From: Candidatus Woesearchaeota archaeon
Lineage (GTDB): Archaea > Nanobdellota > Nanobdellia > Pacearchaeales > GW2011-AR1
Assembly: GCA_964494915.1 (NCBI GenBank)
Contig: CAZBTP010000001.1
Location: 6,792-70,791, forward strand
DNA length: 64,000 nucleotides
Reading direction: 5' to 3'
The position numbers and the translations under genes were made by a program. Position 1 is the first letter of the stretch, and the number at the start of each line of letters is the position of its first letter. Below, piece by piece: positions 1,656-56,705 of this stretch. The notes beneath the pieces were generated by a model, which worked only from the letters and a program-made list of their open reading frames with translations, was not told the DNA's origin and made no database searches.

Positions 1656-3107
1656 ATGGCAACAAAAAAATTCTACCTCACAACACCAATCTACTACCCA
1701 AATGACATACCTCATCTTGGGCATGCATATACAACAATCGCAGCCGATGCTCTTGCGCGCTGGCACAGACTACTAGGAAACAAGGTATTCTTCCTTACAG
1801 GAACAGACGAACACGGAAAGAAAATAGCGCGAACCGCAGAAAAAGTAGGAAAAACACCGGAGCAATTTACTGATGCCCTTGTCCCTGAATTCAAAAAAGC
1901 ATGGCACACACTCAATATAACCTACGACCGGTTTATCCGTACAACAGAAGAAGATCATAAAAAAGTCGTTCAATACATCCTCGAGAAAGTCAACGCGAAC
2001 AACGATATCTACAAAGGAATGTACGAAGGACTCTATTGTACAGAGTGCGAGGCATACTACACAGAAAAAGACGTTCCAACCGCCCACTGCCCAATCCACA
2101 AAAAGCCGCTGGAAACACTCAAAGAAGAGTCTTACTTCTTCAGACTTTCAAAATACCAACCTTTTCTCCTCGATTTCTACAAAAAAAATCCAGAATTCAT
2201 CTCGCCAAAAAAGAGAAAACAAGAAATAATCAACCGGGTGAAAGAAGGCCTCAGGGATTTCAGCATCTCACGAACCTCATTCAGCTGGGGCATCCCTCTT
2301 CCATTTGACAAAAAACACATCACCTACGTTTGGTTCGATGCGCTTATCAACTATCTCTCGGGCGTTGATATCCTAAAAAACAAAAAACAATTCTCAACCT
2401 TCTGGCCAGCAGATGTTCACCTCATTGGCAAAGACATCCTCTGGTTTCATGTTGTTTACTGGCCTGCCATGCTCAAATCAGCAGGTATTGAACTTCCAAA
2501 GAAAGTATTTGCACACGGCTTTCTTACCCTTCATAATGAGAAGATAGGAAAATCAGCAGGCAACGCAATCACCATCCAGACACTTATCAATTATGCAGGC
2601 GTTGACACAGCACGCTATTTCCTTCTTCGATCAACACCCTTCGGCGAAGACGGTGACTTCTCAGAACACGCACTCAAAGAAAGACACAATAACGAACTTG
2701 CAAACAAACTCGGAAATCTCGTTACAAGGACAACTGCTCTTGCGGAAAGGTATGGTATCGAGAAGACCCTAATAAAAAGATTATCATCAAAACAACTCTA
2801 TACAAAGATAACAAACTATCTTAAGAATCTTGAATTTGATAAAGCTTTGAATGAGATATTTTCTTTTATTGATCGATGCAACAAATTCATCCAAACGAAA
2901 AAACCCTGGGAAACAAAAGACAAAGAAGTCTTATATGAACTCTGTAATGCCCTCAAAGACATTGCAATCCTCCTCTCCCCATTTCTACCAGAAACATCAG
3001 AAAAAATAGCAACAATACTCAATACCCCAATAACGCTCAAAAACCTCAAAAAACCCCTCCTCATAAACAAAATAAAAAAATCAGAAATCCTATTTAAAAA
3101 GATTTAG
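1656..3107 (+). CDS. metG: methionyl-tRNA synthetase (short form without C-terminal tRNA-binding domain)
   Basis: HLGH motif (PHLGHAYT), KMSKS-like KIGKSAGN, and a Cys-x2-Cys...Cys-Pro knuckle (CTECEAYY...HCP). Confidence 0.93.
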   Translation: MATKKFYLTTPIYYPNDIPHLGHAYTTIAADALARWHRLLGNKVFFLTGTDEHGKKIARTAEKVGKTPEQFTDALVPEFKKAWHTLNITYDRFIRTTEEDHKKVVQYILEKVNANNDIYKGMYEGLYCTECEAYYTEKDVPTAHCPIHKKPLETLKEESYFFRLSKYQPFLLDFYKKNPEFISPKKRKQEIINRVKEGLRDFSISRTSFSWGIPLPFDKKHITYVWFDALINYLSGVDILKNKKQFSTFWPADVHLIGKDILWFHVVYWPAMLKSAGIELPKKVFAHGFLTLHNEKIGKSAGNAITIQTLINYAGVDTARYFLLRSTPFGEDGDFSEHALKERHNNELANKLGNLVTRTTALAERYGIEKTLIKRLSSKQLYTKITNYLKNLEFDKALNEIFSFIDRCNKFIQTKKPWETKDKEVLYELCNALKDIAILLSPFLPETSEKIATILNTPITLKNLKKPLLINKIKKSEILFKKI

Positions 3108-6100
3108 CCGAGACTCTTTCGACATCCAAACGGATAATCAAACCACAAGAACTTAAAACACCGTCGACAAACGCCGAAACCGTTCTCGCTAACACAAACA
3201 TTGCCATCGGGACACTTAAGAAGTTCATAATCCAAAACATTCCCAGCACAATAATACACTCTTAGATTACGCCCCGGATAATAATCAGGATTACAAATAT
3301 CCTTTTGTTCAACGTACCCATCTTCCTGATTCCCTGTCACTGTATTCTTCACCTTTTTTATTGAGTCGTACGAGAGCGGGTCAGATTCCTTTTGTTGAGC
3401 AGCGCTGATCTGACCTCCGGTTCTGGTAGGGAATACTCTCCCCACAGGGTCATTGCATGTGTATCCAAGTTCCGTGGCATCAGTTTGTTCTTGGTTGTTT
3501 GTTTGCGAAGTTTGCGAGGAGGAAAATTTAATTTCTACATTAATTCCGCCATCAGACGTTATCTCTTTAACTTTTATCCTTAAATCATTATCGGGATCAT
3601 AAAACTCTTTTCCAATATTTAAGAAAGAATCTACAAAGTCGGTTCTTGTTATATCTTTAGATTCCTTTGGATAATCTGGCAAAGATTCAGGAGTCATATC
3701 AAGTAAATAGGTTGACCACGATTCATAATCTTCGGGTAAAAGGCCTCTAATTAAAATTCCATTAATATTGATTCCCATTCCCTCAAGACGTTTAAGTTTT
3801 TCGTCAAACCCAATAGATTGTCTAAATTCCAATAAATAAGAAGAAATTTCCAGTCCTTCTTTGTCGGATATAGATATATGATTCTTTAATGGAACTTTTA
3901 TTACTTTTAATTTAGAATTTACTTCTTCCAGAGGATAGAGAGTATAAACTCCGCTTTGCGAAACAACTTGAAAATTACTCTCTTCAAACCAGCCCAGACG
4001 TTTTTTGTGGTTCCCATTAAAATGATAAGCATACAACCTACCTCCCATAACATCAAACACATCGCTATAAGGGTCTATCGAGCACTTGGAGTAATCTTTA
4101 GTTATGATCTCTTTTCCACATTCATAAGTTATTGCATGTCCATTAATACCGAAACTATGTCCCAGCTCATGTGCAAAAACAGTATTTGCGGCAGGAAAAT
4201 GATCTTTTCCTCCCAAACTATCTCCATACGGAGAGAATATTTGGTCGAAGTAAATATGGGAAATGCCTATTTTTATTCTTCCGTCAGGAGTATCAATGAC
4301 TTTTTTTCCAAAAGATGAACTACCAAAAGCACCAGGGCAATTCTCGCGGAATACAATAATAATTCTATCATAATCCGGATAATAAACTTCATTATCGGCT
4401 ATCTCAAAAATTTCTTGATCGGTTCGAGAGCAAGAATCCTCTCCCTCTTTTAAATGATACCATCCATAAACATCCCCTGTCAACCATGTCTTTCCATAGG
4501 ACGCCTCTGTAATAAAACTAGTTATTGATTTTTGTGCCCCAGTATCAAAAATTGCCTTCTGGTAATCTGCTAGAGGGGTTTCACCATTATCGTTTAACAA
4601 ATCTACTAAAATCACAGCAATTTTTTGCTCACCTGATACATCGCCAATTTCAGCACAGCTCGATGCAGTAAAGGTTCGCAGGGGAGAATTCACTCCGTTC
4701 GATATCCATACACTATAGGTACTTCCCTCTTGCAAATTAAACCCGCTTCGTTCAATATATGTTCCAGAACTCGCGTGCCAGAATGTTCTCTCGCCACCGG
4801 ACGGCGCAACAACACTCATTGTTGGAGAAAGTACATAGCTATCCCAATAATCAGTTGGATATTCAGTCGTGTACGAACCAGGAGCAACAGCAATCCAATA
4901 TTTCCCACTTGAGGGGGCACTACCACCGCTCCACGAAATTGTTGCTTTTGACACACCATTCTCACACGAAAGAGACACACTAGGCTTGTTCACTGGCGTG
5001 ACAGAAGAAGTATTCTGAGTAGGTATTGGTTGCGTTGGTTGTTGTGTACTACAAATAGGAGTCGTTATACTAGTCATTCCTGAATTCTTGCCGTTAGAAA
5101 CCCAGAAACTATAAGCTTTATTTTCTTCCAAAACAAATCCTCCTTGTTGAATATATGTTCCATCTTTTGCGTGCCAGAATGCTCTCTCGCCACCATTCCA
5201 AGCAACAACACTTGTTGTAGAAGAACTAACATAGGTATCCCAATAATCAGTTGGATAGGTTGTGTGTAAGCCAGGAGCAACAGCAATCCAATATTTCCCA
5301 CTTGAGGGGGCACTACCACCGCTCCACGAAATTGTTGCTTTTGACACACCATTCTCACACGAAAGAGACACACTAGGCTTGTTCACTGGCGTGACAGAAG
5401 AAGTATTCTGAGTAGGTATTGGTTGCGTTGGTTGTTGTGTACTACAAATAGGAGTCGTTATACTAGTCATTCCTGAATTCTTGCCGTTAGAAACCCAGAA
5501 ACTATAAGCTTTATTTTCTTCCAAAACAAATCCTCCTTGTTGAATATACGTTCCAGAACTCGCGTGCCAGAATGTTCTCTCGCCACCGGACGGCGCAACA
5601 ACACTTGTCGTAGAAGAAGTAATATAAGTATATGTAGAAGAATTAACATTAGTACCTATAAAAGAACTGACATACGTATCCCAGTAATCAGTCGGATAGG
5701 TTGTGTGTGAACCAGGAGCAACAGCGATCCAATATCTCCCACTTGAAGGAGCACTACCACCACTCCATGAAATTGTTGCTTTTACAACGTTTCCATCACA
5801 AAACGCATTCACACTTGGCGCATTCGTCGGTATTATCTGAGGGCTCGTCCCGCTACATCTTTGGGCAGAAAATCTTGTTATTAGCGAATTTGAATTTGCA
5901 CCCTTCGATACCCATACACTATACTCAGCTCCATCTTCTAACGAGAATCCTCCTTGTTGAATATACGTTCCAGAACTCGCGTGCCAGAATGTTCTCTCGC
6001 CACCGGACGGCGCAACAACACTCATTGTTGGAGAAAGTACATAGCTATCCCAATAATCAGTTGGATAGGTTGTGTACGAACCAGGAGCAATAGCGATCCA

Positions 6101-6319
6101 ATATCTGTCACTCGCAGGATTAGGATCGCCACTCCAAACGATACTCGCTTTTGAGACACTATTTTCACAATACGTTTGCACAAAGGGTTGCGTAACCGGA
6201 CTTAATTGCGGACGCTTAAAACCGAACCATTCAAGAATATCATCGCCAAGCCCAGCAGAAACAAAGGGAATACCTAATAGTAAAACAATAACAAATCCAA
6301 GATAAATAATAGTTCTCAT
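3104..6319 (-). CDS. giant secreted modular protein with four approximately 100-aa W/Y-rich Cys-bounded repeat modules, a zinc metalloprotease domain (M6/InhA-like, HELGH) and a Cys-rich C-terminal domain
   Basis: Signal peptide MRTIIYLGFVIVLLLGIPFVSA. Repeated modules VSKATISWSGGSAP..YWIAVAPG..YPTDYWD..GGERTFWH..YSFWVSNG. PT-rich linkers QQPTQPIPTQNTSS. Protease region EQKIAVILV...EASYGKTWLTGDVYGWY...HELGHSFG. C-terminal GYTCNDP...CRRCFKFLWFDYPFGC. Confidence 0.7.
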   Translation of the reverse strand: MRTIIYLGFVIVLLLGIPFVSAGLGDDILEWFGFKRPQLSPVTQPFVQTYCENSVSKASIVWSGDPNPASDRYWIAIAPGSYTTYPTDYWDSYVLSPTMSVVAPSGGERTFWHASSGTYIQQGGFSLEDGAEYSVWVSKGANSNSLITRFSAQRCSGTSPQIIPTNAPSVNAFCDGNVVKATISWSGGSAPSSGRYWIAVAPGSHTTYPTDYWDTYVSSFIGTNVNSSTYTYITSSTTSVVAPSGGERTFWHASSGTYIQQGGFVLEENKAYSFWVSNGKNSGMTSITTPICSTQQPTQPIPTQNTSSVTPVNKPSVSLSCENGVSKATISWSGGSAPSSGKYWIAVAPGLHTTYPTDYWDTYVSSSTTSVVAWNGGERAFWHAKDGTYIQQGGFVLEENKAYSFWVSNGKNSGMTSITTPICSTQQPTQPIPTQNTSSVTPVNKPSVSLSCENGVSKATISWSGGSAPSSGKYWIAVAPGSYTTEYPTDYWDSYVLSPTMSVVAPSGGERTFWHASSGTYIERSGFNLQEGSTYSVWISNGVNSPLRTFTASSCAEIGDVSGEQKIAVILVDLLNDNGETPLADYQKAIFDTGAQKSITSFITEASYGKTWLTGDVYGWYHLKEGEDSCSRTDQEIFEIADNEVYYPDYDRIIIVFRENCPGAFGSSSFGKKVIDTPDGRIKIGISHIYFDQIFSPYGDSLGGKDHFPAANTVFAHELGHSFGINGHAITYECGKEIITKDYSKCSIDPYSDVFDVMGGRLYAYHFNGNHKKRLGWFEESNFQVVSQSGVYTLYPLEEVNSKLKVIKVPLKNHISISDKEGLEISSYLLEFRQSIGFDEKLKRLEGMGININGILIRGLLPEDYESWSTYLLDMTPESLPDYPKESKDITRTDFVDSFLNIGKEFYDPDNDLRIKVKEITSDGGINVEIKFSSSQTSQTNNQEQTDATELGYTCNDPVGRVFPTRTGGQISAAQQKESDPLSYDSIKKVKNTVTGNQEDGYVEQKDICNPDYYPGRNLRVYYCAGNVLDYELLKCPDGNVCVSENGFGVCRRCFKFLWFDYPFGCRKSLG
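4877..5547. repeat. intragenic tandem duplication in gene 3104-6319: about 280 nt of perfect identity at 390-nt offset
   Basis: The string from ccaggagcaacagcaatccaatatttcccacttgagggggcactaccaccgctcc to ccttgttgaatata occurs identically at about 4877-5157 and about 5267-5547. Confidence 0.8.
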
Positions 6320-6420
6320 CGTCCTCCTTCTTATATAAAATAATATGTCTCAATTTATATATCTTACTGCAAGTATCAAGAATAAAATATATTTACGCTA
6401 AAGCGAAAGATCTTCGTCAC

Positions 6421-6620
6421 CAATCAATCCAGAACCCTCTCGTTAATACCCTTCCACTCACGAAAGGCTTTTTCATACCGCTCCTCATAAACAAAATAAA
6501 AAAATCAGAAATCCTATTTAAAAAGATTTAGCCGAGACTCTTTCGACATCCAAACGGATAATCAAACCACAAGAACTTAAAACACCGTCGACAAACACCG
6601 AAACCATCTTCATTGATACT
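6421..6620. repeat. mosaic intergenic spacer made of copied gene 3' ends (NTase 11663 region, MetRS 3057-3107, secreted gene 3108-3185)
   Basis: 6425-6485 matches 11667-11727 with 3 mismatches. 6481-6531 equals 3057-3107 exactly. 6532-6612 equals 3108-3188 with about 1 mismatch. Confidence 0.85.
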
Positions 6621-6662
6621 TGTCGATTTAGAAATTATTACCTATGTACCTATGGGGATAGG

Positions 6663-9600
6663 CTATAAGTTCCTTTTGACATCCTCGAGATACTTGCTGT
6701 AGCCGCTTAGTACCTTTTGACATCCAAATGGGTAATCGAACAACCAGAAGTTAAAGCATCTTCGACAAGCACCAACCCAAAAACCAAGATTCTTATCATT
6801 GATACATATATGGTTCTCTGGACACTTAAGTATTTCATATTTTAGTGCATTCCCAACACAATAAGGCACCTGCAGATCATAACCAGAAGGACTACAAAGA
6901 TCTGATACTTCAAAATCTCCTACTCCTTGATTTCCCGTAACAGTATTCTTCTCCTTTTTTATTAAGTCGTATGAGAGGGGATTGAGTATCATATCTTTAT
7001 TACTTCTACCTGGTCTTGTAGGGAATACTCTCCCCGCAGGGTCATTGCATGTGTATCCAAGCTGTCCTGCGTCAACAACAGCAGGCGCAGGCGGTGTTGT
7101 TGATCCTTCAGCTCCACTACATGTAACACTAACGCTATTGCTATTCGCGTCTAATCCTTCATCACCGCCATCGATGTAATAGGTATGACTTCTGACAGAG
7201 GCTTCAAAACTAGTTGACAGCAAGGTCTGCCCGATAACTACATCACTTGGTTGCTCAACAAACTTTACAACTTGATTATTCTCTACAACATTATATCCGC
7301 TAACTGAATTAATACTGGCCCATGATAAATCAACGCGTGTACCGCTGCAGAAGCCAGCTAGTGAGATCTCGAACTGTGTTGGTGTTGGCGTTGTTGTACC
7401 CGGTGTCGGACTTTGAACATCTCGGGGCGGACTAATACAATAATAGATCACTCTTCCATTTCTATCTTCAAACGATCCTATAACACTATCGCTCCCGCAA
7501 CCGTTATACTGAACATACACATTTGTCAAGAACACGGTATTTTCTGAAAATGAAGACTTCCTCACACACTGATACACGACCGCCCCCTTTCCGTCAAGGA
7601 ACCAACTGCCAACACGATCGCCCACGATCCCACAACCTTCTGCACTATCGCGGAAGTAAACATGAGTAACATACTCTTTTCCAGGACTACCAACAGACTT
7701 CCGTACACAATGATTAATCCGCCGTCCATTAGCATCATCAAACCAACTTGTAACATCATCACCCCCACAAGTATCATACTGAAAATAAGCCCCTTCCACA
7801 ATCCCTATTGAAACAGTCAAGGGAGGCGTCGTAATACCATTCGCCTTTAACTCTCGGAAGATATTCCTCGCCAAACCAGGATCGCGTTGGCTACCAAAAA
7901 ATCCCCCAGGTTTCTCAAACAAGAAATCAACCAGTGTCTCCTGAAATGCAGCATCAATCCTTCCAGAACTCAACCTGCTTTGCAACGTATCAGCCATCGA
8001 ATTACTCAATTCGCGAACACGCTGAACAGCAGAACTACCTAGATCAGAACTGAGTGTGGCATCATCAACAATAAGTTCTTTCAATACCTTCTCGCCAAGT
8101 TCAGCATTCCGCGGCGTATTCAAAAGACCACGAACACCATAGAGGTAATCTAACAAACTAATCTGAAACTCAACATCAATATTACGCGCATTAAACTTCG
8201 TCTCTAAATTACTTGCCATCCCTGGATCTTTATCCTGTAAATAACTGATAACTTCGTCTTTCAACGCACCGCTAATCATATATCCATTTAACACAATAGG
8301 TAATGTTCCTTCTCCACCTTGTTCTCCTCCAGTTCTACCAGATACAATATCAGCACAGCTCATTGCGGTAAAGGTTTGCAGAAGAGAATTCACTCCATTT
8401 GATATCCATACACTATAGGCACCCCCTTCCTGCAAGGTAAACCCACTCTGTCCGATATATGTTCCAGAACTCGCGTGCCAGAATGTTCTCTCGCCACCAG
8501 ACGGAGCAACAACACTGGTCGTAGAAGAACTAACATACGTATCCCAATAATCAGTTGGGTAGGTTGTGTGTGAGCCAGGAGCAATAGCGATCCAATATCT
8601 CCCAGTTGAAGGAGCAGCGCCACCAGACCATGAAATCGTTGCTTTTGAGACGCCATTCTCACACAAAAGGGACACACTAGGCTTGTTCACTGGCGTGACA
8701 GAAGGAGTATTCTGAGTAGGTGTTGGTTGCGTTGGTTGCTGTGTACAAATAGGAGTCGTTATACTAGTCATCCTTGAATTCACGCCGTTAGAAACCCAGA
8801 AACTATAAGCTTTATTTCCTTCCAAAACAAGCCCACTTTGTCCGATATATGTTCCATCTTTTGCGTGCCAGAATGTTCTCTCGCCACCAGACGGAGCAAC
8901 AACACTTGTCGTAGAAGAACTAACATATGTATCCCAATAATCAGTTGGATATTCGGTCGTGTACGAACCAGGAGCAACAGCGATCCAATATCTCCCAGTT
9001 GAAGGAGCAGCGCCACCGCTCCACGAAATCGTTGCTTTTGCAACGTTTCCATCACAAAACGGAGTTAAAGATGGAGGATTCACCGGCGCTATCTGAGGAG
9101 GGGTGGCTGTAGTGGTTGGCGTCGGTGTAGGTTGTGGAGTTAATTGTTGCGTACAAATAAGGGCACGGAAATGGGTCCTTCCTGAATTCACGCCATTAGA
9201 TACCCAGTAAGTATACTCTTTCGTTGGTTCCAAAACAAATCCTCCTTGTTGAATATACGTACCGTCTTTCACATGCCAAAATGTTCTCTCGCCACCAGTT
9301 GGAACAACAACACTTGTTGTAGAAGAACTTACATAGCTGTCCCAGTAATCAGTTGGATAGGTTCCATATAAGCCGGGAGCAACAGCAATCCAATATCTTC
9401 CACCTGAGGGAGCACCACCACCGCTCCACGAAATCGTTGCTTTTGCAACGTTTCCATCACAAAACGGAGTTAAAGATGGAGGATTCACCGGCGCTATCTG
9501 AGGAGGGGTGGCTGTAGTGGTTGGCGTCGGTGTAGGTTGTGGAGTTAATTGTTGCGTACAAATAAGGGCACGGAAATGGGTCCTTCCTGAATTCACGCCA

Positions 9601-10361
9601 TTAGATACCCAGTAAGTATACTCTTTCGTTGGTTCCAAAACAAATCCTCCTTGTTGAATATACGTACCGTCTTTCACATGCCAAAATGTTCTCTCGCCAC
9701 CAGTTGGAACAACAACACTTGTTGTAGAAGAACTTACATAGCTGTCCCAGTAATCAGTTGGATAGGTTCCATATAAGCCGGGAGCAACAGCAATCCAATA
9801 TCTTCCACCTGAGGGAGCACCACCACCGCTCCACGAAATCGTTGCTTTTGAAACATCATTTTCACAAAACGTAAGCACCGTTGGAGTCACGCGGCAACCT
9901 GAGGCAATAAACTGTATTATTTGAGAGTTCGCCCCATTTGAGATCCATACACTATAAGTACTTCCACTTTGCAAGGTAAACCCACTTTGTTCAAAATATG
10001 TTCCGGAACTTGCATGCCAGAATGCTCTATCGCCACCAGTTGGAACAACAACACTTGTCGTAGAAGAACTTACATAGCTGTCCCAGTAATCAGTTGGATG
10101 AGTTGCATGTACACCAGGAGCAACAGCAATCCAATATCTTCCACCTGAGGGAGCACTACCACCGCTCCACGAAATCGTTGCTTTTGAAACATCATTTTCA
10201 CAGTAAACGCGTACTCCGATTTGATTTATAGGTTCCGGACTCAATTGCGGACGCTTAAAACCAAACCATTCAAGAATATCATCGCCAAGCCCAGCAGAAA
10301 CAAAGGGAATACCTAATAGTAAAACAATAACAAATCCAAAATAGATTGTAGTTCTCATCAT
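6663..10361 (-). CDS. giant secreted modular protein paralog with six W/Y-rich repeat modules, no HExxH domain, a triplicated small Cys motif, an FN3-like segment and the shared Cys-rich C-terminal domain
   Basis: Signal peptide and first 40 aa nearly identical to gene 3104-6319, as are the 5'-end nucleotides 10270-10361 versus 6228-6319. Same module consensus and C-terminal GYTCNDPAGRVFPTRPG...CRRCFNFWLFDYPFGCQK. Confidence 0.7.
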   Translation of the reverse strand: MMRTTIYFGFVIVLLLGIPFVSAGLGDDILEWFGFKRPQLSPEPINQIGVRVYCENDVSKATISWSGGSAPSGGRYWIAVAPGVHATHPTDYWDSYVSSSTTSVVVPTGGDRAFWHASSGTYFEQSGFTLQSGSTYSVWISNGANSQIIQFIASGCRVTPTVLTFCENDVSKATISWSGGGAPSGGRYWIAVAPGLYGTYPTDYWDSYVSSSTTSVVVPTGGERTFWHVKDGTYIQQGGFVLEPTKEYTYWVSNGVNSGRTHFRALICTQQLTPQPTPTPTTTATPPQIAPVNPPSLTPFCDGNVAKATISWSGGGAPSGGRYWIAVAPGLYGTYPTDYWDSYVSSSTTSVVVPTGGERTFWHVKDGTYIQQGGFVLEPTKEYTYWVSNGVNSGRTHFRALICTQQLTPQPTPTPTTTATPPQIAPVNPPSLTPFCDGNVAKATISWSGGAAPSTGRYWIAVAPGSYTTEYPTDYWDTYVSSSTTSVVAPSGGERTFWHAKDGTYIGQSGLVLEGNKAYSFWVSNGVNSRMTSITTPICTQQPTQPTPTQNTPSVTPVNKPSVSLLCENGVSKATISWSGGAAPSTGRYWIAIAPGSHTTYPTDYWDTYVSSSTTSVVAPSGGERTFWHASSGTYIGQSGFTLQEGGAYSVWISNGVNSLLQTFTAMSCADIVSGRTGGEQGGEGTLPIVLNGYMISGALKDEVISYLQDKDPGMASNLETKFNARNIDVEFQISLLDYLYGVRGLLNTPRNAELGEKVLKELIVDDATLSSDLGSSAVQRVRELSNSMADTLQSRLSSGRIDAAFQETLVDFLFEKPGGFFGSQRDPGLARNIFRELKANGITTPPLTVSIGIVEGAYFQYDTCGGDDVTSWFDDANGRRINHCVRKSVGSPGKEYVTHVYFRDSAEGCGIVGDRVGSWFLDGKGAVVYQCVRKSSFSENTVFLTNVYVQYNGCGSDSVIGSFEDRNGRVIYYCISPPRDVQSPTPGTTTPTPTQFEISLAGFCSGTRVDLSWASINSVSGYNVVENNQVVKFVEQPSDVVIGQTLLSTSFEASVRSHTYYIDGGDEGLDANSNSVSVTCSGAEGSTTPPAPAVVDAGQLGYTCNDPAGRVFPTRPGRSNKDMILNPLSYDLIKKEKNTVTGNQGVGDFEVSDLCSPSGYDLQVPYCVGNALKYEILKCPENHICINDKNLGFWVGACRRCFNFWLFDYPFGCQKVLSGYSKYLEDVKRNL
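9016..9825. repeat. perfect 405-bp (135-codon) tandem duplication, two copies, inside gene 6663-10361
   Basis: About 433 nt starting caccgctccacgaaatcgttgcttttgcaacg is identical at 9013-9445 and 9418-9850. The encoded module LTPFCDGNVAKATISW...QIAPVNPPS appears twice verbatim. Confidence 0.9.
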
Positions 10362-10575: not shown

Positions 10576-10983
10576 CTAGCTATTTTTCAATTCCTCGACA
10601 ATTTTTTTGCATTTTTCTATTGCTTGTTTTGCGGTTTCATAATCCATCCTGTTTCCGTAATAAGTAAGGGAGTTTCTTTTATACCTTAAGTCATCAATTA
10701 ATATATACAAATCCTCTCTTTTTAGAACATCCCTTAAATAATAACCTAAGCAAATATGGTTTAATATGTTGAATCCTTTTTTGAAAGCCATTGCCTGCAA
10801 TAATTCAAGCAATGAAGTATAATAATCTTCAAATATAAAATTGCAGTTTTTTTCATTCACTTCTTTAATTAAGTTCATTCTTTCGCTTGCAGTCTCTTGT
10901 AAAGATTCTGCTCTTTTTAGGTCAGGAGTTATAGTTTTAGCTGATTTATTGATTAAGCAATCATCCCAGTTTGCTTCTTTCAT
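10576..10983 (-). CDS. HEPN-domain protein (partner of the adjacent minimal nucleotidyltransferase)
   Basis: 135-aa helical protein overlapping by 4 nt (ATGA) with the upstream MNT gene. R-x(4-6)-H-like region LRYKRNSLTYYG. Typical MNT-HEPN pair arrangement. Confidence 0.55.
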   Translation of the reverse strand: MKEANWDDCLINKSAKTITPDLKRAESLQETASERMNLIKEVNEKNCNFIFEDYYTSLLELLQAMAFKKGFNILNHICLGYYLRDVLKREDLYILIDDLRYKRNSLTYYGNRMDYETAKQAIEKCKKIVEELKNS

Positions 10984-11513
10984 CTAAAAACCTCCACAAA
11001 TCCATTTAATAAAAAGCCGTTTATAACATTATTTGCTAAATGAGGATTTGATAATTCATTAAGATTTTTATGCTGGAATACTTGTATTCTTCTTTTAAGT
11101 AATTTTTCAAATTTTTCAAAAATTACTTTTCTCTTTGAAGGGGTTTCTATATATAAGTCAATATCGCTTTCTTCTGTGTCTTCTCCTTTTGCAAAAGAAC
11201 CGAAAAGAACAATTGCGGGGTTGCTTAATTCCTGTTTTAGATACTCTATAAGCCCTGATTCATATATCTTTTTTATATTGCAGAGCTTTTTTTCCAAGAG
11301 GTATTTTTCACTGCTCCTATTTGCTGTGTAGAAATTAACATTGCCTGTTTTAACTGCTGTTAAAATGCTTTCTTTTTCCAGTTCTTTGCAATATCTTATA
11401 ACAGAAGGAAGAGAAAGTTTAAGGGTTCTTTCTATCTCTCTTACCCTAAGTTTAGCATTAGGATTAACAAAGAAGTATTCACTGATTGTTTGCTTGATAT
11501 CTTTTCTTTTCAT
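10980..11513 (-). CDS. minimal nucleotidyltransferase (MNT) with N-terminal winged-helix domain
   Basis: GSFAKGEDTEESDIDLYIE matches GS-x(9-13)-DxD of the pol-beta NTase superfamily. N-terminal wHTH-like LSLPSVIRYCKELEKESIL. Confidence 0.7.
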   Translation of the reverse strand: MKRKDIKQTISEYFFVNPNAKLRVREIERTLKLSLPSVIRYCKELEKESILTAVKTGNVNFYTANRSSEKYLLEKKLCNIKKIYESGLIEYLKQELSNPAIVLFGSFAKGEDTEESDIDLYIETPSKRKVIFEKFEKLLKRRIQVFQHKNLNELSNPHLANNVINGFLLNGFVEVFR

Positions 11514-11662: not shown

Positions 11663-12403
11663 CTAATCCAGAACCTTTTCATTAATACCCTTCCACTCAC
11701 GAAAGGCTTTTTCATACCGCTCCCAGGTATCCGTTGGAAACCATTGTCCTTGAAACAAGAAACCCGCGAGCTGCCCCCGCGAGGCAAGAATCGGCCAAAT
11801 CTCTCGCTCAATCGAAACAGCCCTCTCTTCAGGAATCAGATCAATAACAGAAGGTTCTAGGACATACAATCCAGAGCTAATCAATTTGCTCGGTGCTTCA
11901 TGCGCGAGCGGCTTTTCCACAAATCTTTTTATTTTATTATCCTCAAGATCTGCAACCCCATAGCCTGTAATATCCTCAAGCTCCTTCAACGCAATCGTTG
12001 CCAACACGCCTTGTTGCGCATGAAAATCATGGAAGACATCAAGGTTAACATCCTTTAACTCATCGCCATTACACATATAAAACCTTTCTTTTAATAAGCC
12101 TCGAGCTAGCCGTAGTGCCCCTGCAGTTCCCATCGGCTGATTCTCAATAACATATCGTATCCGCACACCAAACCTTGAACCATCGCCAAAATACCGCATA
12201 AACTGCGACGCCTTATACCCGATCGCAAGAACAATCTCTTGAACATTGTGTCTCTTAAACAACTCAATCCCATGTTCCAGAATCGGCTTTCCATGAATTG
12301 GAATCATTAATTTTGCGACTTCATACGTTAACGGTCGTAACCGCGTTCCCAATCCTCCTGCAAGAATAAACGCCTTTGTTGGTGTTTCCATTACCACAAA
12401 CAA
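11663..12403 (-). CDS. sugar-1-phosphate nucleotidyltransferase (RmlA/GlmU-like NTP_transferase)
   Basis: FILAGGLGTRLRPLT G-rich loop. Probable true start at METPTK (about 12391). Confidence 0.85.
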   Translation of the reverse strand: MFVVMETPTKAFILAGGLGTRLRPLTYEVAKLMIPIHGKPILEHGIELFKRHNVQEIVLAIGYKASQFMRYFGDGSRFGVRIRYVIENQPMGTAGALRLARGLLKERFYMCNGDELKDVNLDVFHDFHAQQGVLATIALKELEDITGYGVADLEDNKIKRFVEKPLAHEAPSKLISSGLYVLEPSVIDLIPEERAVSIEREIWPILASRGQLAGFLFQGQWFPTDTWERYEKAFREWKGINEKVLD

Positions 12404-35042: not shown

Positions 35043-35128
35043 CGTCCCGGAGAGGACTCGAACCTCTGACCCCATGGTGTCTGTACGACGATAACAGCCA
35101 TGTGCTCTGCCAGCTGAGCTACCGGGAC
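35043..35128 (-). tRNA. tRNA-Asn (anticodon GUU) with 13-nt intron after position 37
   Basis: Cloverleaf GUCCCGG-UA-GCUCAGCUGGCAGAGC-A-CAUGG[CUGUUA+UCGUCGUACAGAC+A]CCAUG-GGGUC-AGAGGUUCGAGUCCUCU-CCGGGAC-G. No CCA encoded. Confidence 0.75.
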
Positions 35129-39219: not shown

Positions 39220-39825
39220 CTACCTACAGAATCCACGTTGTGCAGCCTCACGAAATGGTTCAAAGAATATCAGCTTTATCCAGCCAAGAAGGGGTATTTT
39301 TATGATCGCTTTTCCCATAATTCTTTCAGGCAGGATGTTTGTCTCATCAATGTTCTGGTTATTAGTATTCCCCACAAGCTGTCCTGGGTTGTGATCTCCT
39401 TTTGTTGCTATCGGATCGGTAGTAACAATACGGTGAATAATTGGGTGTCTCGCGTTTGCTTCAGGATTCGCCTCAAAAACAATAACGTCTCCCACAATGT
39501 ACGATGATCTCCCCCATACCACAATAATATCTCCCTTTGTAAATCCGTTTCTTAAACGAAATGTCATAAACTCCTCTTCCGAAATGCCGTTTGTTTTGTA
39601 CCATTCAGCGTTCTTTGTCCACCACATTTCAAACCCTGATTCGTGGTACATGGAACAGGATTCTACAACGACGAGTGGTAAAGGGCTTGCCGTAATAAAG
39701 GAAAGTGTCGGGAAAAAGATAAAGCGTATAAGGACAACAATAAGAATAAGCGAAACGACCCAAGAATGCCAGCTGTCTTTTTTGAGGTAGTTCCAGAATT
39801 GTTGTATTCGTATTTTTAGGGCCAT
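39220..39825 (-). CDS. signal peptidase I, archaeal/Sec11 type (S26)
   Basis: Box B-like VVVESCSMYH, GDIIVV, IIHRIV, KGDHN boxes after an N-terminal TM. Confidence 0.6.
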   Translation of the reverse strand: MALKIRIQQFWNYLKKDSWHSWVVSLILIVVLIRFIFFPTLSFITASPLPLVVVESCSMYHESGFEMWWTKNAEWYKTNGISEEEFMTFRLRNGFTKGDIIVVWGRSSYIVGDVIVFEANPEANARHPIIHRIVTTDPIATKGDHNPGQLVGNTNNQNIDETNILPERIMGKAIIKIPLLGWIKLIFFEPFREAAQRGFCR

Positions 39826-44501: not shown

Positions 44502-44885
44502 ATGACTATGAAAGACTTGTTTGATGCAAAGATCGTGTGTAAGCAATGTGACGTACAGATGAAACCAATCTACGTCGAAAAGTCTGGTTTTCGTCTGCGA
44601 GCAATTCACTGTCCACACTGCAATGATAAGATTATTCATCCCGGAGATTTACACGATTTAGAGCAGTATAATGGCTTGCGGCAGAAAACGTTCGATGTGA
44701 AATTACGTATGGTAGGAAACAGCCATGCAATCAGTATCCCGAAAGAGATTGTTGATTTTATTAATGAAACACACCAGCGCATGCATAAACAGATGAGCGA
44801 TATGGTACGTTTAGGATTTGAGGATTTTGGAAAGTTGAGCATTACATTTTTTAATGATGCTCAAAAGAGGGGGCGCGAATGGTAA
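44502..44885 (+). CDS. zinc-ribbon plus AbrB/SpoVT-like (swapped-hairpin) small protein, translationally coupled to cdc48
   Basis: CKQCD...CPHCN ribbon. [22 protein letters not shown] resembles AbrB/MazE. Stop overlaps the CDC48 start (ATGG at 44879). Confidence 0.5.
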
Positions 44886-47800
44886 AGAGCACAGGTATTA
44901 AACTAAAAGTCGTTGAGTCATTGCAAGACGATGTATACAAAGGAGTTGCACGAATCGATCCGCAGATCATGCGATCGATGGGTTTGATGAGGGGCGATAT
45001 TATCACAATTCAAGGCGGGCGAGAAACGCAAGCGATTGTCGATCGTGCATACCCTGCTGATGTCGGCGAGAGTATTATTCGTATCGACGGTCTGATCAGA
45101 AAGAATGCGCGTATTGGCGTCGGTGAGCACGTTATCGTCAAGAAAGCAACGAGCAGACCAGCAACAAAGGTCATTATTGCACCTGCACAGCAAGGGATTA
45201 TGGTACAAGGCGATCCTGAAATGTTAAAGCAGGGTTTGTTAGGACGCCCAGTTGCAAAGGGAGATATCATCTCATTAGGAGGAGTGCATCGCCGGAGAGA
45301 TAGTATAGGTGATGGTTTTCCTGACTTCTTCGGCGATCTACATGATCTGTTCGGAGGGCATCTTGCATTTCCTGGCTTTCAACACCTACGATTTATCGTC
45401 GTTTCAACAATACCAAATCAGCAGTGTTTTATCAATGAAGATAGCGAGATCGTACTAAATCCAAAGGCCGTTGATATCTCTGAAGATGCAATGCCGGGTA
45501 TTACATACGAAGAGATTGGCGGTTTAAGGGACGAGATTAAAAAAATACGTGAAATGGTCGAACTTCCGTTGAAACATCCTGAGATCTTTGAACGTCTTGG
45601 CATTGACGCGCCAAAGGGAGTTTTATTACATGGTCCACCAGGAACTGGAAAGACACTCCTCGCAAAGGCTGTGGCGAATGAGTCCGATGCTAATTTCATT
45701 TTGTTAAATGGTCCTGAGGTCATGAGTAAATTTTACGGGGAATCTGAGAAAAAGATTAGAGATATCTTCGAAGAAGCAGAGAAGCATGCACCGAGCATTA
45801 TCTTTTTCGACGAGATTGATGCGATCGCGCCGAAGCGAGAGGATGTACAAGGAGAGGTTGAACGAAGGGTGGTAAGTCAGTTATTATCAATGATGGATGG
45901 TTTAAAGTCAAGAGGAAAGGTTGTTGTTATTGGAGCGACAAATAGGGTTAATTCTGTTGATCCTGCGTTACGAAGACCTGGAAGATTTGACCGAGAGATT
46001 GAGATCTCTGTCCCCGGAAAGGAGGCGCGTTTAGATATACTAAAGATTCATACGCGAAATATGCCATTAACAAAAAATGTCAATCTTGATATGCTTGCAG
46101 GAAAGACGCACGGTTTTGTTGGCGCTGATTTGTCCGCGTTGACAAAAGAGGCTGCGATGAATGTTCTACGAAAGATGCTACCTGAGCTTAAGATGGACAG
46201 TGAAGAACCAATACCAAAGGAGGTTTTGGAAAAAGCTATTGTTCGCGTCGAGGACTTTGAAGATGCATTAAAGGTTGTACGCCCGAGTGCAATGAGAGAA
46301 GTTTTTGTTGAAACACCAAATGTTTCCTGGGAAGACGTTGGTGGCCTAGAAAAAACAAAGCAAGAATTGAAGGAAGCCGTTGAATGGCCGATTACGAATC
46401 CTGACGGCTTTAAACGACTCGGTATCAGAGCACCACGGGGAATCTTGTTGTATGGACCTCCAGGAACAGGGAAGACGCTATTAGCGAAGGCAGTTGCGAA
46501 GGAATCTGAGGCAAACTTTATTCATATTAAAGGACCTTCGCTATTAAGTATGTGGGTCGGAAAGTCGCTTCCCTATGAGGAAGAGGTTATTGTAATGAAA
46601 AATGGGCTTGTTGATAGAAAACCCATTGGAAGGCTTGTTGAAAACAAAGAGAAGGCTGATGTTATAAGTTTTGATAAACATAAAAAAGTAAAGTTCTCTC
46701 CGATAAAGGATTTTATACTCCATAATTCGGATGGGTCTCTTGTTGAGATCACTACTGCAAGTGGTAGGAAGATTCGTGTAACGAAAGATCATTCATTGTT
46801 TAGTTTGTATGGTACTGAGATTATTGATCTGCCAACGACTCATCTTAAAGAGAATGAGAGCTATATTGCGATTCCGCGGAAACTTCCTCTTCCTGAGATC
46901 GAACCGGAGCCGATTAATCTCTTGCATGTTCTTGAGGAAGAAATTTCTGTTTCTTTTAATAGCTATATTGGGGAAGCGGTTAAGGTGTTAGGAAAAGAAC
47001 GATCTGCCGAAGTACTTGAGATACCTCTAAAGTATATGTATGATGTGCTTAGCAAAGAGTTGGCGATCTCCGCAAAAGGATTTCTAGCCCTCATGAAGGA
47101 AGCAGGAATAGCGTTCGACTATAAGCAGACTAGTATCCATGTACGAAATAGCACCCACTCAATGCAAGCTTCTTTGATTATTACTCCAGAATTGTGCGAA
47201 CTTCTTGGACTATGGGTTGCTGAAGGCGATTACAATAAAAAAAGCGTTCGTATTCATGCGATGAATAAGGAGATACGAATGAGAGTGAGAGAACTTTTAG
47301 ATGTCTGTCGTTTACCCTTCTCGACTAATAAAGAAACCTTTAGTATCAACTCGTTATTATTCCAGCGTATCATGAAGGAAGTTTTCAAGTTATATGATAA
47401 AGCCCATAATAAGCGAATACCTGCTTTGGTGTTTACTTTACCACGGCGATATATTCATTCTTTTTTGAGAGGTTATTACAGTGGAGATGGTTCTATTTAT
47501 TCTACGAATGGAAGAAGTTCTGCTATTGAAGCTGCGACAAAAAGTGAGAAACTAGCGAATGATTTACTTTATCTATTGTTAGGGCTTGGTATCGTTGGAA
47601 GGGTTTATGAAAAGAGCATTGATACAGAACGCTATTATCGAGTTATGTTTATGGGAGTCGACTATCTCACCGTATTTAGCGAGATAGGCTTTATTGATAC
47701 CAAGAGAAATAATAGGATTCTGTTGTACATTAAAAGTAAGAAATGGAAAAGAAGTGATAATATTCCTATTACAGGAGATTTGTACACGCTTCTTCCAAAA

Positions 47801-48619
47801 TCACGAAGATCGAATGAAAGTATTGAACGAGAAGAACTGAGAAAGATTGGGAACCAGTTGAATAATGAAAACATATTAAAATTGGTTGATGCCGATGTTT
47901 ATTTTGATAAGGTCGTTGAAATTACCAATCTCGACTATTCTCTCCCTGTATACGATCTAACAATAAATCCAACTGAGAATTTTGTTGCAGGATTTGGTGG
48001 TGTGTTCGTGCATAATAGCGAAGAAGGCGTTCGAAAGGTTTTTGAGCGCGCGCGGCAGGTCGCACCCTGTGTTGTGTTCTTTGACGAGATTGATGCACTT
48101 GCAGGAAAACGAGGGTTAGAAGTCGGGACAAAGGTAACCGAACGTGTTTTGAATCAGCTCTTAGCAGAGATTGACGGTCTTGAAGACCTAAAAGACGTAA
48201 CTATTATTGGTGCTACGAATCGGCCAGATATGTTAGATCCGGCTATCTTACGACCAGGAAGGTTCGATCGAGTGATCTTGGTTGATATACCCGATGAAAC
48301 AAGTCGTCAGAGAATTTTAGAGATCCATACCAAAAAGACACCGTTGGGAGACGACGTTGATATACGCGAGCTTGTAAAGTTAACCGATGGTTTTGTTGGT
48401 GCTGATTTAGAAGCGTTAGTACGTGAAGCTGCGCTGAATGCATTACGGAAAGATAACAGCGCGAGTATGGTGATGCTTGATGATTTCGACGAAGCGTTCA
48501 AGAGGGTTAAACCCTCAGTATCGCGCGACACTGCGCAGCGATACAAAAAGATCGAAGAGTATTATTTAAAGCGAGCAAAAGCAGGATTAGAAAGTTCCAG
48601 CCCTATGTATGCAGGATAA
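44879..48619 (+). CDS. cdc48: CDC48/VCP-like AAA+ ATPase containing a 484-aa LAGLIDADG intein in the D2 domain
   Basis: N-domain, two Walker A GPPGTGKT, two DEID Walker B, SRH. Extein about 762 aa once 46565-48016 is removed. Confidence 0.9.
46565..48016 (+). mobile_element. intein with LAGLIDADG homing-endonuclease domain inserted between WVGK and SEEGVRK of CDC48 D2
   Basis: Begins with Ser, ends VHN followed by Ser. Motifs [11 protein letters not shown] and [13 protein letters not shown]. Flanks reconstitute the CDC48 consensus LLSxWVGESE. Confidence 0.85.
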
Positions 48620-55703: not shown

Positions 55704-56705
55704 TTAATCGTCTTTTCCTATAAGTTCGTAGAACCCGTCTTCATTCTGGCCGCCCTTCGAACCTGGAAGCGTCGTGCTTCCCGCTGGCGGAATATTTTTT
55801 CCGTGAGGGTTGACTGTCTCTATACAACCTATCTTCGGTGGGGTTTCATCATGAGGTTCTTGTAATGGACACGTCCCTGCTTCTACTTCAAAGGCCTCAT
55901 ACAGACTGTTAAATGCATCCTTAGCAAGAATCGCTTCTTTTGGAGCGTACGTTACCGGGTCACAGGTAAGATCCTCTACTCTTCCTGCTGTCGTAGCAAA
56001 CTGGGATATAAAATCGCCATTTGTTTTATTAATTCTCCGAATCTCAGCAGCACCATTACGACCTATATACAATGTATTCCCTGCTCCAACCACCACGCCG
56101 CTAACACTACAATCTGATATATTGTTAGCGTCCTTTGGCGTTACTGTGTTAAGAAGTGTTCCATTCGGTGTGAGATGGTAAACATTGCAGTTAACATCAG
56201 GGCTATAGTATATTGTGTCATCACTTCCATCGTATGCTAATCCATCAACGAGGGGTAGTCCACTAACATTAGGACTAAACTGAAAGGTTGCCAGTGCTGT
56301 ACCATTAAGAGTCTTATTACCGACATCAATGAGATAGACACTGTCATTGAAAGCTCCCCAGAGCAGATCCCTGCCCTGATCCCAGGCTAATGCACTAATA
56401 ATAATCGAATCATTGCTCGCGTTTATGATAGACTTTGTAGCTATAAGTGTTGCACTTCCATTCCCGCCGATAGGTGGTTGGTATATACCTATCACTGTTC
56501 CAGAACAGCTATTTGAGTTGATTGTAAGGTAGTATACACCATCAAACGTACCAGCGACTGAACAACCACCATTTCCAGGTAAACTAACCGTTCCTAATAG
56601 ATCTCCTGCAACTGCTAAAACTATACTAGCGGTCGTAATCATGAGAGATAGCATTATGAACATCTTTACGCTTCTCGCATTCAGAAATCTTTTCTGATTA
56701 TCCAT
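55704..56705 (-). CDS. secreted beta-propeller-like surface protein with many NxS/T sequons (ends at an in-frame TAA; 87 further sense codons follow)
   Basis: Signal/TM IMLSLMITTASIVLAVA. Repeated YY/NGT-containing blades. Confidence 0.55.
   Translation of the reverse strand: MDNQKRFLNARSVKMFIMLSLMITTASIVLAVAGDLLGTVSLPGNGGCSVAGTFDGVYYLTINSNSCSGTVIGIYQPPIGGNGSATLIATKSIINASNDSIIISALAWDQGRDLLWGAFNDSVYLIDVGNKTLNGTALATFQFSPNVSGLPLVDGLAYDGSDDTIYYSPDVNCNVYHLTPNGTLLNTVTPKDANNISDCSVSGVVVGAGNTLYIGRNGAAEIRRINKTNGDFISQFATTAGRVEDLTCDPVTYAPKEAILAKDAFNSLYEAFEVEAGTCPLQEPHDETPPKIGCIETVNPHGKNIPPAGSTTLPGSKGGQNEDGFYELIGKDD

Follow-up and report, generated by a model that had tools for sequence, protein, structure and literature searches.

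A 64,000-nt stretch of contig CAZBTP010000001.1 from a Candidatus Woesearchaeota archaeon (the window, below, means this whole stretch) carries two adjacent minus-strand genes for large, predicted secreted proteins that share a repeat module. Gene 1 (3104-6319) encodes a protein of 1071 aa with a signal peptide, four modules, a metzincin protease and a Cys-rich C-terminal domain. Gene 2 (6663-10361) encodes 1232 aa; it starts with the same N-terminus as gene 1 and has five modules and further regions downstream of them, without a protease. Both open reading frames (ORFs) lie exactly where an initial annotation, made from the DNA letters, had placed them. Its description of a tandem pair of paralogous secreted proteins holds as well, since the N-terminus, the modules and the C-terminal domain are all shared, with export predicted from sequence only.

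The N-terminus of gene 1 (aa 1-41; 6197-6319, minus strand) consists of the hydrophobic segment MRTIIYLGFVIVLLLGIPFVSAG, which would act as signal or anchor, and the conserved stretch GLGDDILEWFGFKRPQLSP after it. The two N-termini are 95% identical across 41 aa, in agreement with the near-identity first noted for 40 aa. Counted from the ATG, the corresponding 5' DNA is ~95% identical for ~124 nt, of which 76 nt in a row match exactly, so that the near-identical stretch described earlier is real and longer than the about 90 nt assigned to it. Over the remaining array DNA the genes are 71-75% identical. The C-terminal Cys-rich domain of gene 1 (aa 947-1071; 3107-3481, minus strand) has 8 Cys and ends in CRRCFKFLWFDYPFGC, and its homologue in gene 2 (aa 1097-1232; 6666-7073, minus strand) is 56% identical to it over 128 aa (E 7e-39), confirming a common domain. 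No other copy of the N-terminal motif or of the C-terminal domain was found in the window or in any of the fetched loci, and the C-terminal domain is apparently private to the pair. Both proteins are acidic (pI ~5) and Ser/Thr-rich, with a single strongly hydrophobic segment at the N-terminus; neither has a later transmembrane (TM) segment, a lipobox, an LPXTG motif or a known archaeal C-terminal sorting signal.

The module array occupies aa 51-555 of gene 1 (4655-6169, minus strand), with four Cys-to-Cys modules (C51-C155, C174-C292, C321-C423 and C452-C555) joined by Pro/Thr/Gln linkers, and aa 54-669 of gene 2 (8355-10202, minus strand), with five (C54-C156, C166-C268, C301-C403, C436-C539 and C567-C669). 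The repeats are thus real, and the four to six copies first estimated become four and five. Modules are ~103 aa long, save one copy with a 16-aa insert. The nine copies share 63-96% pairwise identity and 48 invariant columns, and an A-strand-like element, [IV]xPxNxPS[VL]xx[FL]C, lies ahead of every module in the gene 1 array. The ratio of nonsynonymous to synonymous divergence (dN/dS) between modules is 0.14-0.5, and therefore the modules are real, constrained coding repeats.

The module belongs to no named sequence family, as the initial annotation had supposed: neither single modules nor 14 extended modules match Pfam or NCBIfam even at E<=10. A word-indexed search with one module also found nothing, but it missed a near-identical European Nucleotide Archive (ENA) protein too and is an unreliable negative. 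A HMMER profile of the nine copies, run against 1.84 billion cluster representatives at E<=0.001, matched nine proteins, four of them unrelated repetitive sequences and five genuine. The genuine matches are P0121 and P0001, which are both genes of the pair on an ENA contig, and three relatives. P0122, from Pacearchaeota RIFCSPHIGHO2_01_FULL_39_44, has three modules and a Cys-rich tail. P0123, from Nanoarchaeota E14_metabat.bin.43, has two modules, a metzincin with the motif HEIGHTLGLVH and Cys-rich domains, and its N-terminus is cut. P0124, from JGI 3300029288, has two modules alternating with Cys-rich domains and is broken by a contig end. Scanning the GTDB species genomes gave 2 positives among 185,579, and the JGI metagenomes gave two further loci; beyond the matches above, these scans yielded nothing but copies of the P0122 and P0123 loci, and a scan of viral contigs did not find the module. 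The P0122 locus belongs to a Candidatus Pacearchaeota archaeon from Rifle groundwater and the P0123 locus to a Nanoarchaeota metagenome-assembled genome (MAG), so the profile search of metagenomes that had been proposed does find relatives, all in Pacearchaeota or Nanoarchaeota MAGs. Pacearchaeota belong to Nanobdellati, the DPANN kingdom. The module family is therefore real, known so far only from DPANN archaea, and so extremely rare that it can be used as a lineage marker.

The modules of P0122-P0124 are 31-42% identical to those of the gene pair and have the same pre-module element and Pro/Thr linkers; the terminal Cys pair is invariant in all 14 modules from the four lineages. The three relatives also have Cys-rich domains elsewhere in the protein, and P0122 and P0124 also start with a signal peptide, with a D..L..FG-like motif after it. 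P0123, like gene 1, fuses the module to a metzincin, although of a different protease family. The relatives differ from the gene pair in lacking its YPTDYWD and GGERTFWH aromatic stretches, in having unrelated C-terminal domains and in their gene neighbourhoods, which are unrelated to this locus. The motif after the hydrophobic segment reads GLGDDILEWFG, SFLGDLFG and SINDFLSNLFG in the three lineages in which it occurs (gene 1 aa 24-41, gene 2 aa 25-42, P0122 aa 26-40 and P0124 aa 21-35). It could be a shared processing or membrane-interface element.

The module is modelled as a divergent beta-sandwich of the fibronectin type III (FN3) kind and not as an unknown fold. It is about 30 residues longer than FN3 domains, with many more aromatics and an invariant terminal Cys pair, and it shows no significant sequence, profile or Foldseek similarity to them. 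The earlier view of the module as unrecognised thus stands for its sequence, whereas its modelled fold is a generic one; a well-characterised domain is reached solely at this generic-fold level, with no family match.

Downstream of its array gene 2 has an orphan region (aa 670-860; 7782-8354, minus strand) that is Cys-free and probably helical, followed by three two-Cys repeats of ~45 aa (aa 861-985; 7407-7781, minus strand) of the YFQYDTCGG...HCVRKS type. The repeats have the Cys pairs C865/885, C910/932 and C955/975, with R1-R3 similarity at E 1.7e-4, and correspond to the triplicated small Cys motif of the initial annotation. The FN3-like segment proposed there is seen at aa ~996-1085 (7107-7376, minus strand) as a Cys-bounded stretch with the pattern DLSWAS...GYNV only; it has no Pfam or NCBIfam match even at E<=10, and hhalign gives no significant similarity between it and the module. 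No family, homologue or PDB match was found for the Cys-free region, the two-Cys repeats, the FN3-like segment or the C-terminal domain. A word-indexed homologue search with gene 2 aa 670-1232 found nothing, yet it missed the near-identical ENA proteins, and this negative weighs little. Across every segment of the two proteins, the Pfam and NCBIfam scans at E<=10 returned zinc-motif matches only.

The protease domain of gene 1 (aa 556-935; 3515-4654, minus strand) is a gametolysin/M11-like metzincin. Its zinc-binding motif HELGHSFGINGH (aa 717-728; 4136-4171, minus strand), of the form HExxHxxGxxxH, and its SYGKTWLTGDVYGWY motif are both conserved in the family, so the HELGHSFG-type zinc site reported initially is present. 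The domain has 412 relatives. The closest are protease-only proteins of 417-418 aa from Nanoarchaeota-type MAGs (38% identity, E 1e-70), and the others are mostly bacterial, annotated as peptidase M11/gametolysin, M6-like, NEW3 or Ig-like domain proteins. In a 25-sequence alignment gene 1 keeps all family-invariant residues, namely H717, E718, H721, H728, the pair C734/C746 and the Met-turn DVFDVMGG, of which the Asp, Met and Gly are present and the Met is nearly invariant in the family. The initial assignment to an M6/InhA-like zinc protease is right at the superfamily level, and gametolysin/M11 fits better. Among the 25 relatives, 15 match PF05548 (Peptidase_M11) and 18 match Reprolysin_5. 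Against the M6 model TIGR03296, gene 1 scores 27.2 bits (E 3.4e-6) and all tested relatives score 25-64 bits, under the curated cut-off of 110.8. The M6 protease InhA (4yu5) matches the family profile at E 0.05. PDB sequence matches of the protease are to the zinc site of adamalysins and matrix metalloproteinases only. A literature search on gametolysin or metalloprotease surface proteins of DPANN archaea found nothing directly relevant.

The secreted enzyme gametolysin lyses a cell wall made of Pro/Hyp-rich glycoprotein (PMC8643629). The catalytic domain of gene 1 is homologous to those of M11 gametolysin and the bacterial M6/M11-like metzincins (E down to 1e-71 for archaeal and 1e-32 to 1e-21 for bacterial relatives), with which it shares the HExxH...H site, the Met-turn, a YxxTWLTGDVYGWY motif and a conserved Cys pair, as well as predicted export and putative beta-sandwich accessory domains. 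The bacterial relatives carry Ig-like accessory domains (Big_1, MG2, NEW3, cadherin-like), so for this protease it is normal to be joined to a beta-sandwich array. The arrangement differs, since the accessory array of gene 1 is N-terminal and made of a private module, whereas in the bacterial relatives Big_1, MG2 or NEW3 domains are C-terminal. Gene 1 also adds its private Cys-rich C-terminal domain, and the protease domain itself falls below the PF05548 and TIGR03296 thresholds.

The window holds a second gametolysin-like protease besides gene 1, a distant 961-aa paralogue called g3 (48897-51782, minus strand), likewise predicted to be exported, that scores 28.6 bits against PF05548 (cut-off 21). 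It has a canonical HEFGHNLGLPH site and Cys-rich C-terminal domains, and is 33% identical to the gene 1 protease. An N-terminal pro-region-like segment is shared by g3 and a protease relative, P0004, and is lacking in gene 1. On two metagenome contigs (L015 1-3384 and L016 479-3646) the closest protease-only relative, P0002, lies directly downstream of a NosD/beta-helix protein of >1000 aa that is very rich in N-x-S/T sequons. A large exported protein followed by an M11-like protease may be a pairing that recurs in the group with different partners.

These features suggest that gene 1 encodes an exported and active gametolysin-like zinc endopeptidase and gene 2 its non-catalytic paralogue, and that the array and termini common to both serve as a stalk and for delivery. 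We give this reading a probability of roughly 55%. The N-terminal segment would act as signal or anchor and be followed by the lineage-specific FN3-type modules and their Pro/Thr-rich linkers, each module being probably disulfide-closed through its two invariant Cys. Most likely the array serves as an extended stalk or for targeting, and would keep the distal end off the cell: in gene 1 this end comprises the protease, in gene 2 the helical stretch, the Cys repeats and the FN3-like segment, and in both the private Cys-rich domain. The common N- and C-terminal parts may serve a common delivery or docking, and because the N-terminus, modules and C-terminal domain are shared, a common destination or partner is probable for both proteins. 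Extracellular proteolysis is the likely function, and would feed amino-acid uptake or open the proteinaceous envelope of a partner cell, in line with what a DPANN archaeon would be expected to do. The substrate could be an environmental protein (foraging) or the host envelope (attack or attachment), and either fits. A link between the module and extracellular proteolysis is supported by P0123, which independently fuses the module to a different metzincin, and by the Ig-like accessory domains that the bacterial protease relatives normally carry. A Liv-type amino-acid ATP-binding cassette (ABC) transporter operon 2 kb upstream of the locus, on the same strand, is a further but weak indication of such a link. 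In sum, the sequence family of the module is new and its modelled fold is known; the modular secreted metzincin is of a familiar type but newly arranged, and the locus is an unusual version of a familiar surface or secreted protease and no new kind of system.

Several observations count against the protease-on-a-stalk reading. The zinc motif HELGHSFGINGH has one residue more ahead of its third His than the canonical metzincin HExxHxxGxxH, although this His aligns as invariant with the relatives despite the insertion. The gene 1 protease does not match PF05548 even at E<=10 and reaches no curated family threshold, and its membership of M11 is assigned by transitive homology only. The fold call is based on one medium-confidence model from 14 sequences. 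Foldseek with this model gives no match at E<=0.001 (TM-score ~0.5), hhalign of the module with a five-sequence fibronectin/tenascin FN3 alignment gives a probability of 0.6-0.7%, and fn3 (PF00041) does not match the modules at E<=10. The gene neighbourhood is not conserved around P0122, P0123 and P0124, so the link to the transporter is weak. The N-terminal segment may be either cleaved or anchoring, and the orientation of the stalk depends on which.

The aromatic content of the modules (W 4.9%, Y 6.5%) raises the possibility that they are primarily lectin-like or resemble carbohydrate-binding modules (CBMs), and that the proteins are multivalent arrays for binding glycans or a host envelope, with the aromatics of YPTDYWDxYV and GGERTFWH as a sugar platform. 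These aromatic-rich stretches are invariant across the nine copies, and lectins and CBMs typically form multivalent arrays joined by flexible linkers. The nine-module profile also gives a weak match (E 1.4e-4, module residues 6-61) to the bulb-type mannose-binding lectin 1dlp, and the same residues match its second domain. With the 14-module profile, however, the 1dlp match drops to E 9e-3 (domain i-E 0.08), the QxDxNxVxY sugar-binding motif is missing from the aligned stretch, and the model is FN3-like and not a beta-prism II. Membership of B_lectin (beta-prism II) was rejected on these three points. All that P0122-P0124 keep of the aromatics is a Y[WY]...V core, more in keeping with a strand than with a binding site, and no CBM or lectin family matches in the Pfam and NCBIfam scans. 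PDB sequence searches with the protease, the C-terminal domain and the modules returned zinc-site matches, noise and the weak 1dlp match only. We consider a primary role in glycan binding rather unlikely, and it is not exclusive of the protease-stalk explanation.

Large, acidic, Ser/Thr-rich exported proteins with beta-sandwich repeats are typical of archaeal envelopes. The two predicted exported proteins have all of these features, and could in principle be structural envelope components (S-layer- or sheath-like), with the protease used for processing or maturation and not for foraging or attack. The distribution of the family speaks against this, with five proteins among the 1.84 billion representatives, two of the GTDB species genomes and two further JGI loci, as does the lack of a membrane anchor or known archaeal C-terminal sorting signal. 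N-glycosylation sequons (N-x-S/T) are also strongly depleted: gene 2 has 0 where 9.9 are expected and gene 1 has 3 where 9.7 are expected, all three in linkers or an insert. In g3 there are 0 against 8.6 expected. Cytoplasmic proteins of the window have as many as expected, and an exported ORF at 55704-56705 is enriched (10 vs 3.9 expected). Repeats inflate this statistic in genes 1 and 2, whereas g3 is free of that effect. The counts suggest selective avoidance of N-glycosylation in the predicted products of genes 1, 2 and g3. Since the family is rare and sequons are lacking, an S-layer role is very improbable, and an extremely rare family is no common conserved S-layer component.

The two genes differ very unevenly in synonymous divergence (dS): it amounts to 0.15 at the 5' end and to 0.27-0.30 for modules 2 and 3 of gene 1 against module 4 of gene 2, compared with 0.95 for the C-terminal domains and ~0.95-1.0 between the first modules. 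This unevenness points to an old duplication with later gene conversion, and gene 2 would be a non-catalytic tandem-duplication paralogue that later exchanged sequence with gene 1. A mosaic of two copied segments lies between the genes (6426-6605, minus strand). Its 129 nt at 6477-6605 are a 98.4% copy of 3053-3181, the last 78 nt of gene 1 plus 51 nt downstream, and still read ...EDGFGVCRRCFKFLWFDYPFGCRKSLG*. The adjoining 59 nt (6426-6484) are a 95% copy of 11665-11723, the 3' end of an NTP-transferase gene (11663-12403) upstream of gene 2. The same mosaic is found in the ENA contig, and it is a footprint of recent segmental duplication or unequal crossing-over. In the alignment, the ATG of each gene has a TATATAAA box ~40 nt ahead of it, as well as a purine-rich Shine-Dalgarno-like element, and the two genes are therefore probably transcribed separately; a bacterial promoter and terminator scan was uninformative for this archaeal host.

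Between the NTP-transferase gene and gene 2 lies a gene pair (10576-11513, minus strand) in which an NTP_transf_2 gene (MNT-type nucleotidyltransferase) overlaps a 135-aa ORF by 4 nt. No family matches the 135-aa ORF; in layout the two genes are reminiscent of a toxin-antitoxin pair of the MNT/HEPN type. The pair is absent from the scarred copy upstream of gene 1 and so may have been inserted later.

The arrays contain exact DNA repeats of 433, 278 and 101 nt. Modules 2 and 3 of gene 2 form a perfect tandem duplication (9013-9850, minus strand) with a 433-nt exact repeat at a spacing of 405 nt, which equals one module plus linker, and an exact repeat of 278 nt, spaced 393 nt apart, lies in gene 1. 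Both genes thus appear to have undergone very recent internal tandem duplications. Module number also differs in a second copy of the locus, from another assembly of the same species: the 77.8-kb ENA megahit contig ERZ27284378 k139_474069 (L001), which is 98.2-99.9% identical to the window. Its gene 1 encodes 669 aa with one module, a chimera of modules 1 and 4, where the window has four, and its gene 2 encodes 1097 aa with four modules, where the window has five. The copy-number variation that had been proposed as a check is therefore apparently seen. The shortfalls, 1206 nt in gene 1 and 405 nt in gene 2, are exactly as long as the distances at which the 101-nt and 433-nt exact repeats recur, and the exact repeats lie right at the borders of these differences. 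Recombination between repeats in another strain and assembly collapse fit this equally well. The window and L001 differ by up to 1.8% elsewhere, which argues for different strains. In a second ENA assembly, ERZ27284376, contigs stop on both sides of the locus, which favours collapse, and the difference in copy number may be an assembly effect. Contigs ending at or inside the repeat genes occur in three independent assemblies: L011 (k119_88046), L012 (k119_391690) and the end of Ga0265297_10000017 (L005). P0124 is cut by a contig end within a repeated module.

With exact repeats in the arrays and fewer modules in the second assembly, the exact copy numbers are insecure. The long arrays could in part be an assembly artefact, with true genes of fewer modules (one and four, as in the ENA contig) or another number, so that the word giant used for these proteins would be overstated. 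The exact repeats, the shortfall of exactly one repeat spacing per gene and the contig breaks agree with an artefact. However, assemblers usually collapse repeats and seldom expand them, the window copies differ from each other (63-96% identity) with frames intact and dN/dS <1, and the differences between the contigs elsewhere make real strain polymorphism plausible. The minimal versions would still keep the architecture. An artefact is doubtful on balance, but deserves real weight. It is likely that such repeat genes are systematically truncated or missing in DPANN MAGs.

Because repeat DNA identity is high, array length would be recombinationally unstable under the stalk reading, in the manner of bacterial Periscope surface proteins. 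Periscope proteins are fibrillar adhesins of bacteria such as SasG, Rib and Sgo_0707 (PMC8201768). Like them, the gene pair has near-identical folded domains in tandem with very high DNA identity and, by analogy, may project a functional domain at one end. Periscope repeat number varies between close strains, and here it differs between the window and L001, with collapse possible. The gene pair is unlike them in its archaeal host, in lacking an LPXTG motif or cell-wall anchor, in having a protease or orphan region instead of an adhesin head, and in its Pro/Thr-rich linkers.

Elsewhere in the window, LAGLIDADG inteins interrupt Cdc48 (44879-48619, plus strand) and RtcB (56862-59693, plus strand), and just outside it an intein interrupts eRF1 on L001 (19274-21685), giving three intein-bearing housekeeping genes within ~80 kb. 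L001 also carries an L15e gene just beyond the window. ARAGORN called a 'tRNA-Stop (tta)' at 35043-35128 (minus strand), but a suppressor tRNA was rejected, as the Rfam alignment gives a tRNA-Asn(GUU) with a 14-nt canonical archaeal intron after the anticodon loop. The tRNA intron, the inteins in Cdc48 and RtcB, and the eRF1 and L15e genes on L001 agree with the archaeal, DPANN-type host supposed initially. A 201-aa ORF at 39220-39825 (minus strand), with an N-terminal TM segment and an ...ESCSMYP... motif, is presumably an archaeal type I signal peptidase, for which we take the motif to be SxSMxP.

DPANN archaea depend on other cells, and to our knowledge almost nothing is known of the proteins by which they contact their surroundings, open them or exploit them for food. 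A bolder and distinctly unlikely proposal is that the module is a DPANN-specific recognition domain, a disulfide-closed and aromatic-studded FN3 derivative, that targets metzincins and partner proteins to the host envelope, with recombination changing the number and type of modules and so tuning reach or specificity. If true, the locus would be an episymbiont's device for attack and attachment, variable in length, and no Periscope-like system would have been described in Archaea before it. Real differences in repeat number would extend the rapid surface-protein length variation of Gram-positive pathogens to ultra-small archaea, whereas artefactual ones would make the locus a useful warning of errors in short-read MAGs at such genes. 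The locus offers a concrete candidate for such a protein, in the form of an apparently intact, predicted secreted protease and a non-catalytic twin that shares its delivery parts.

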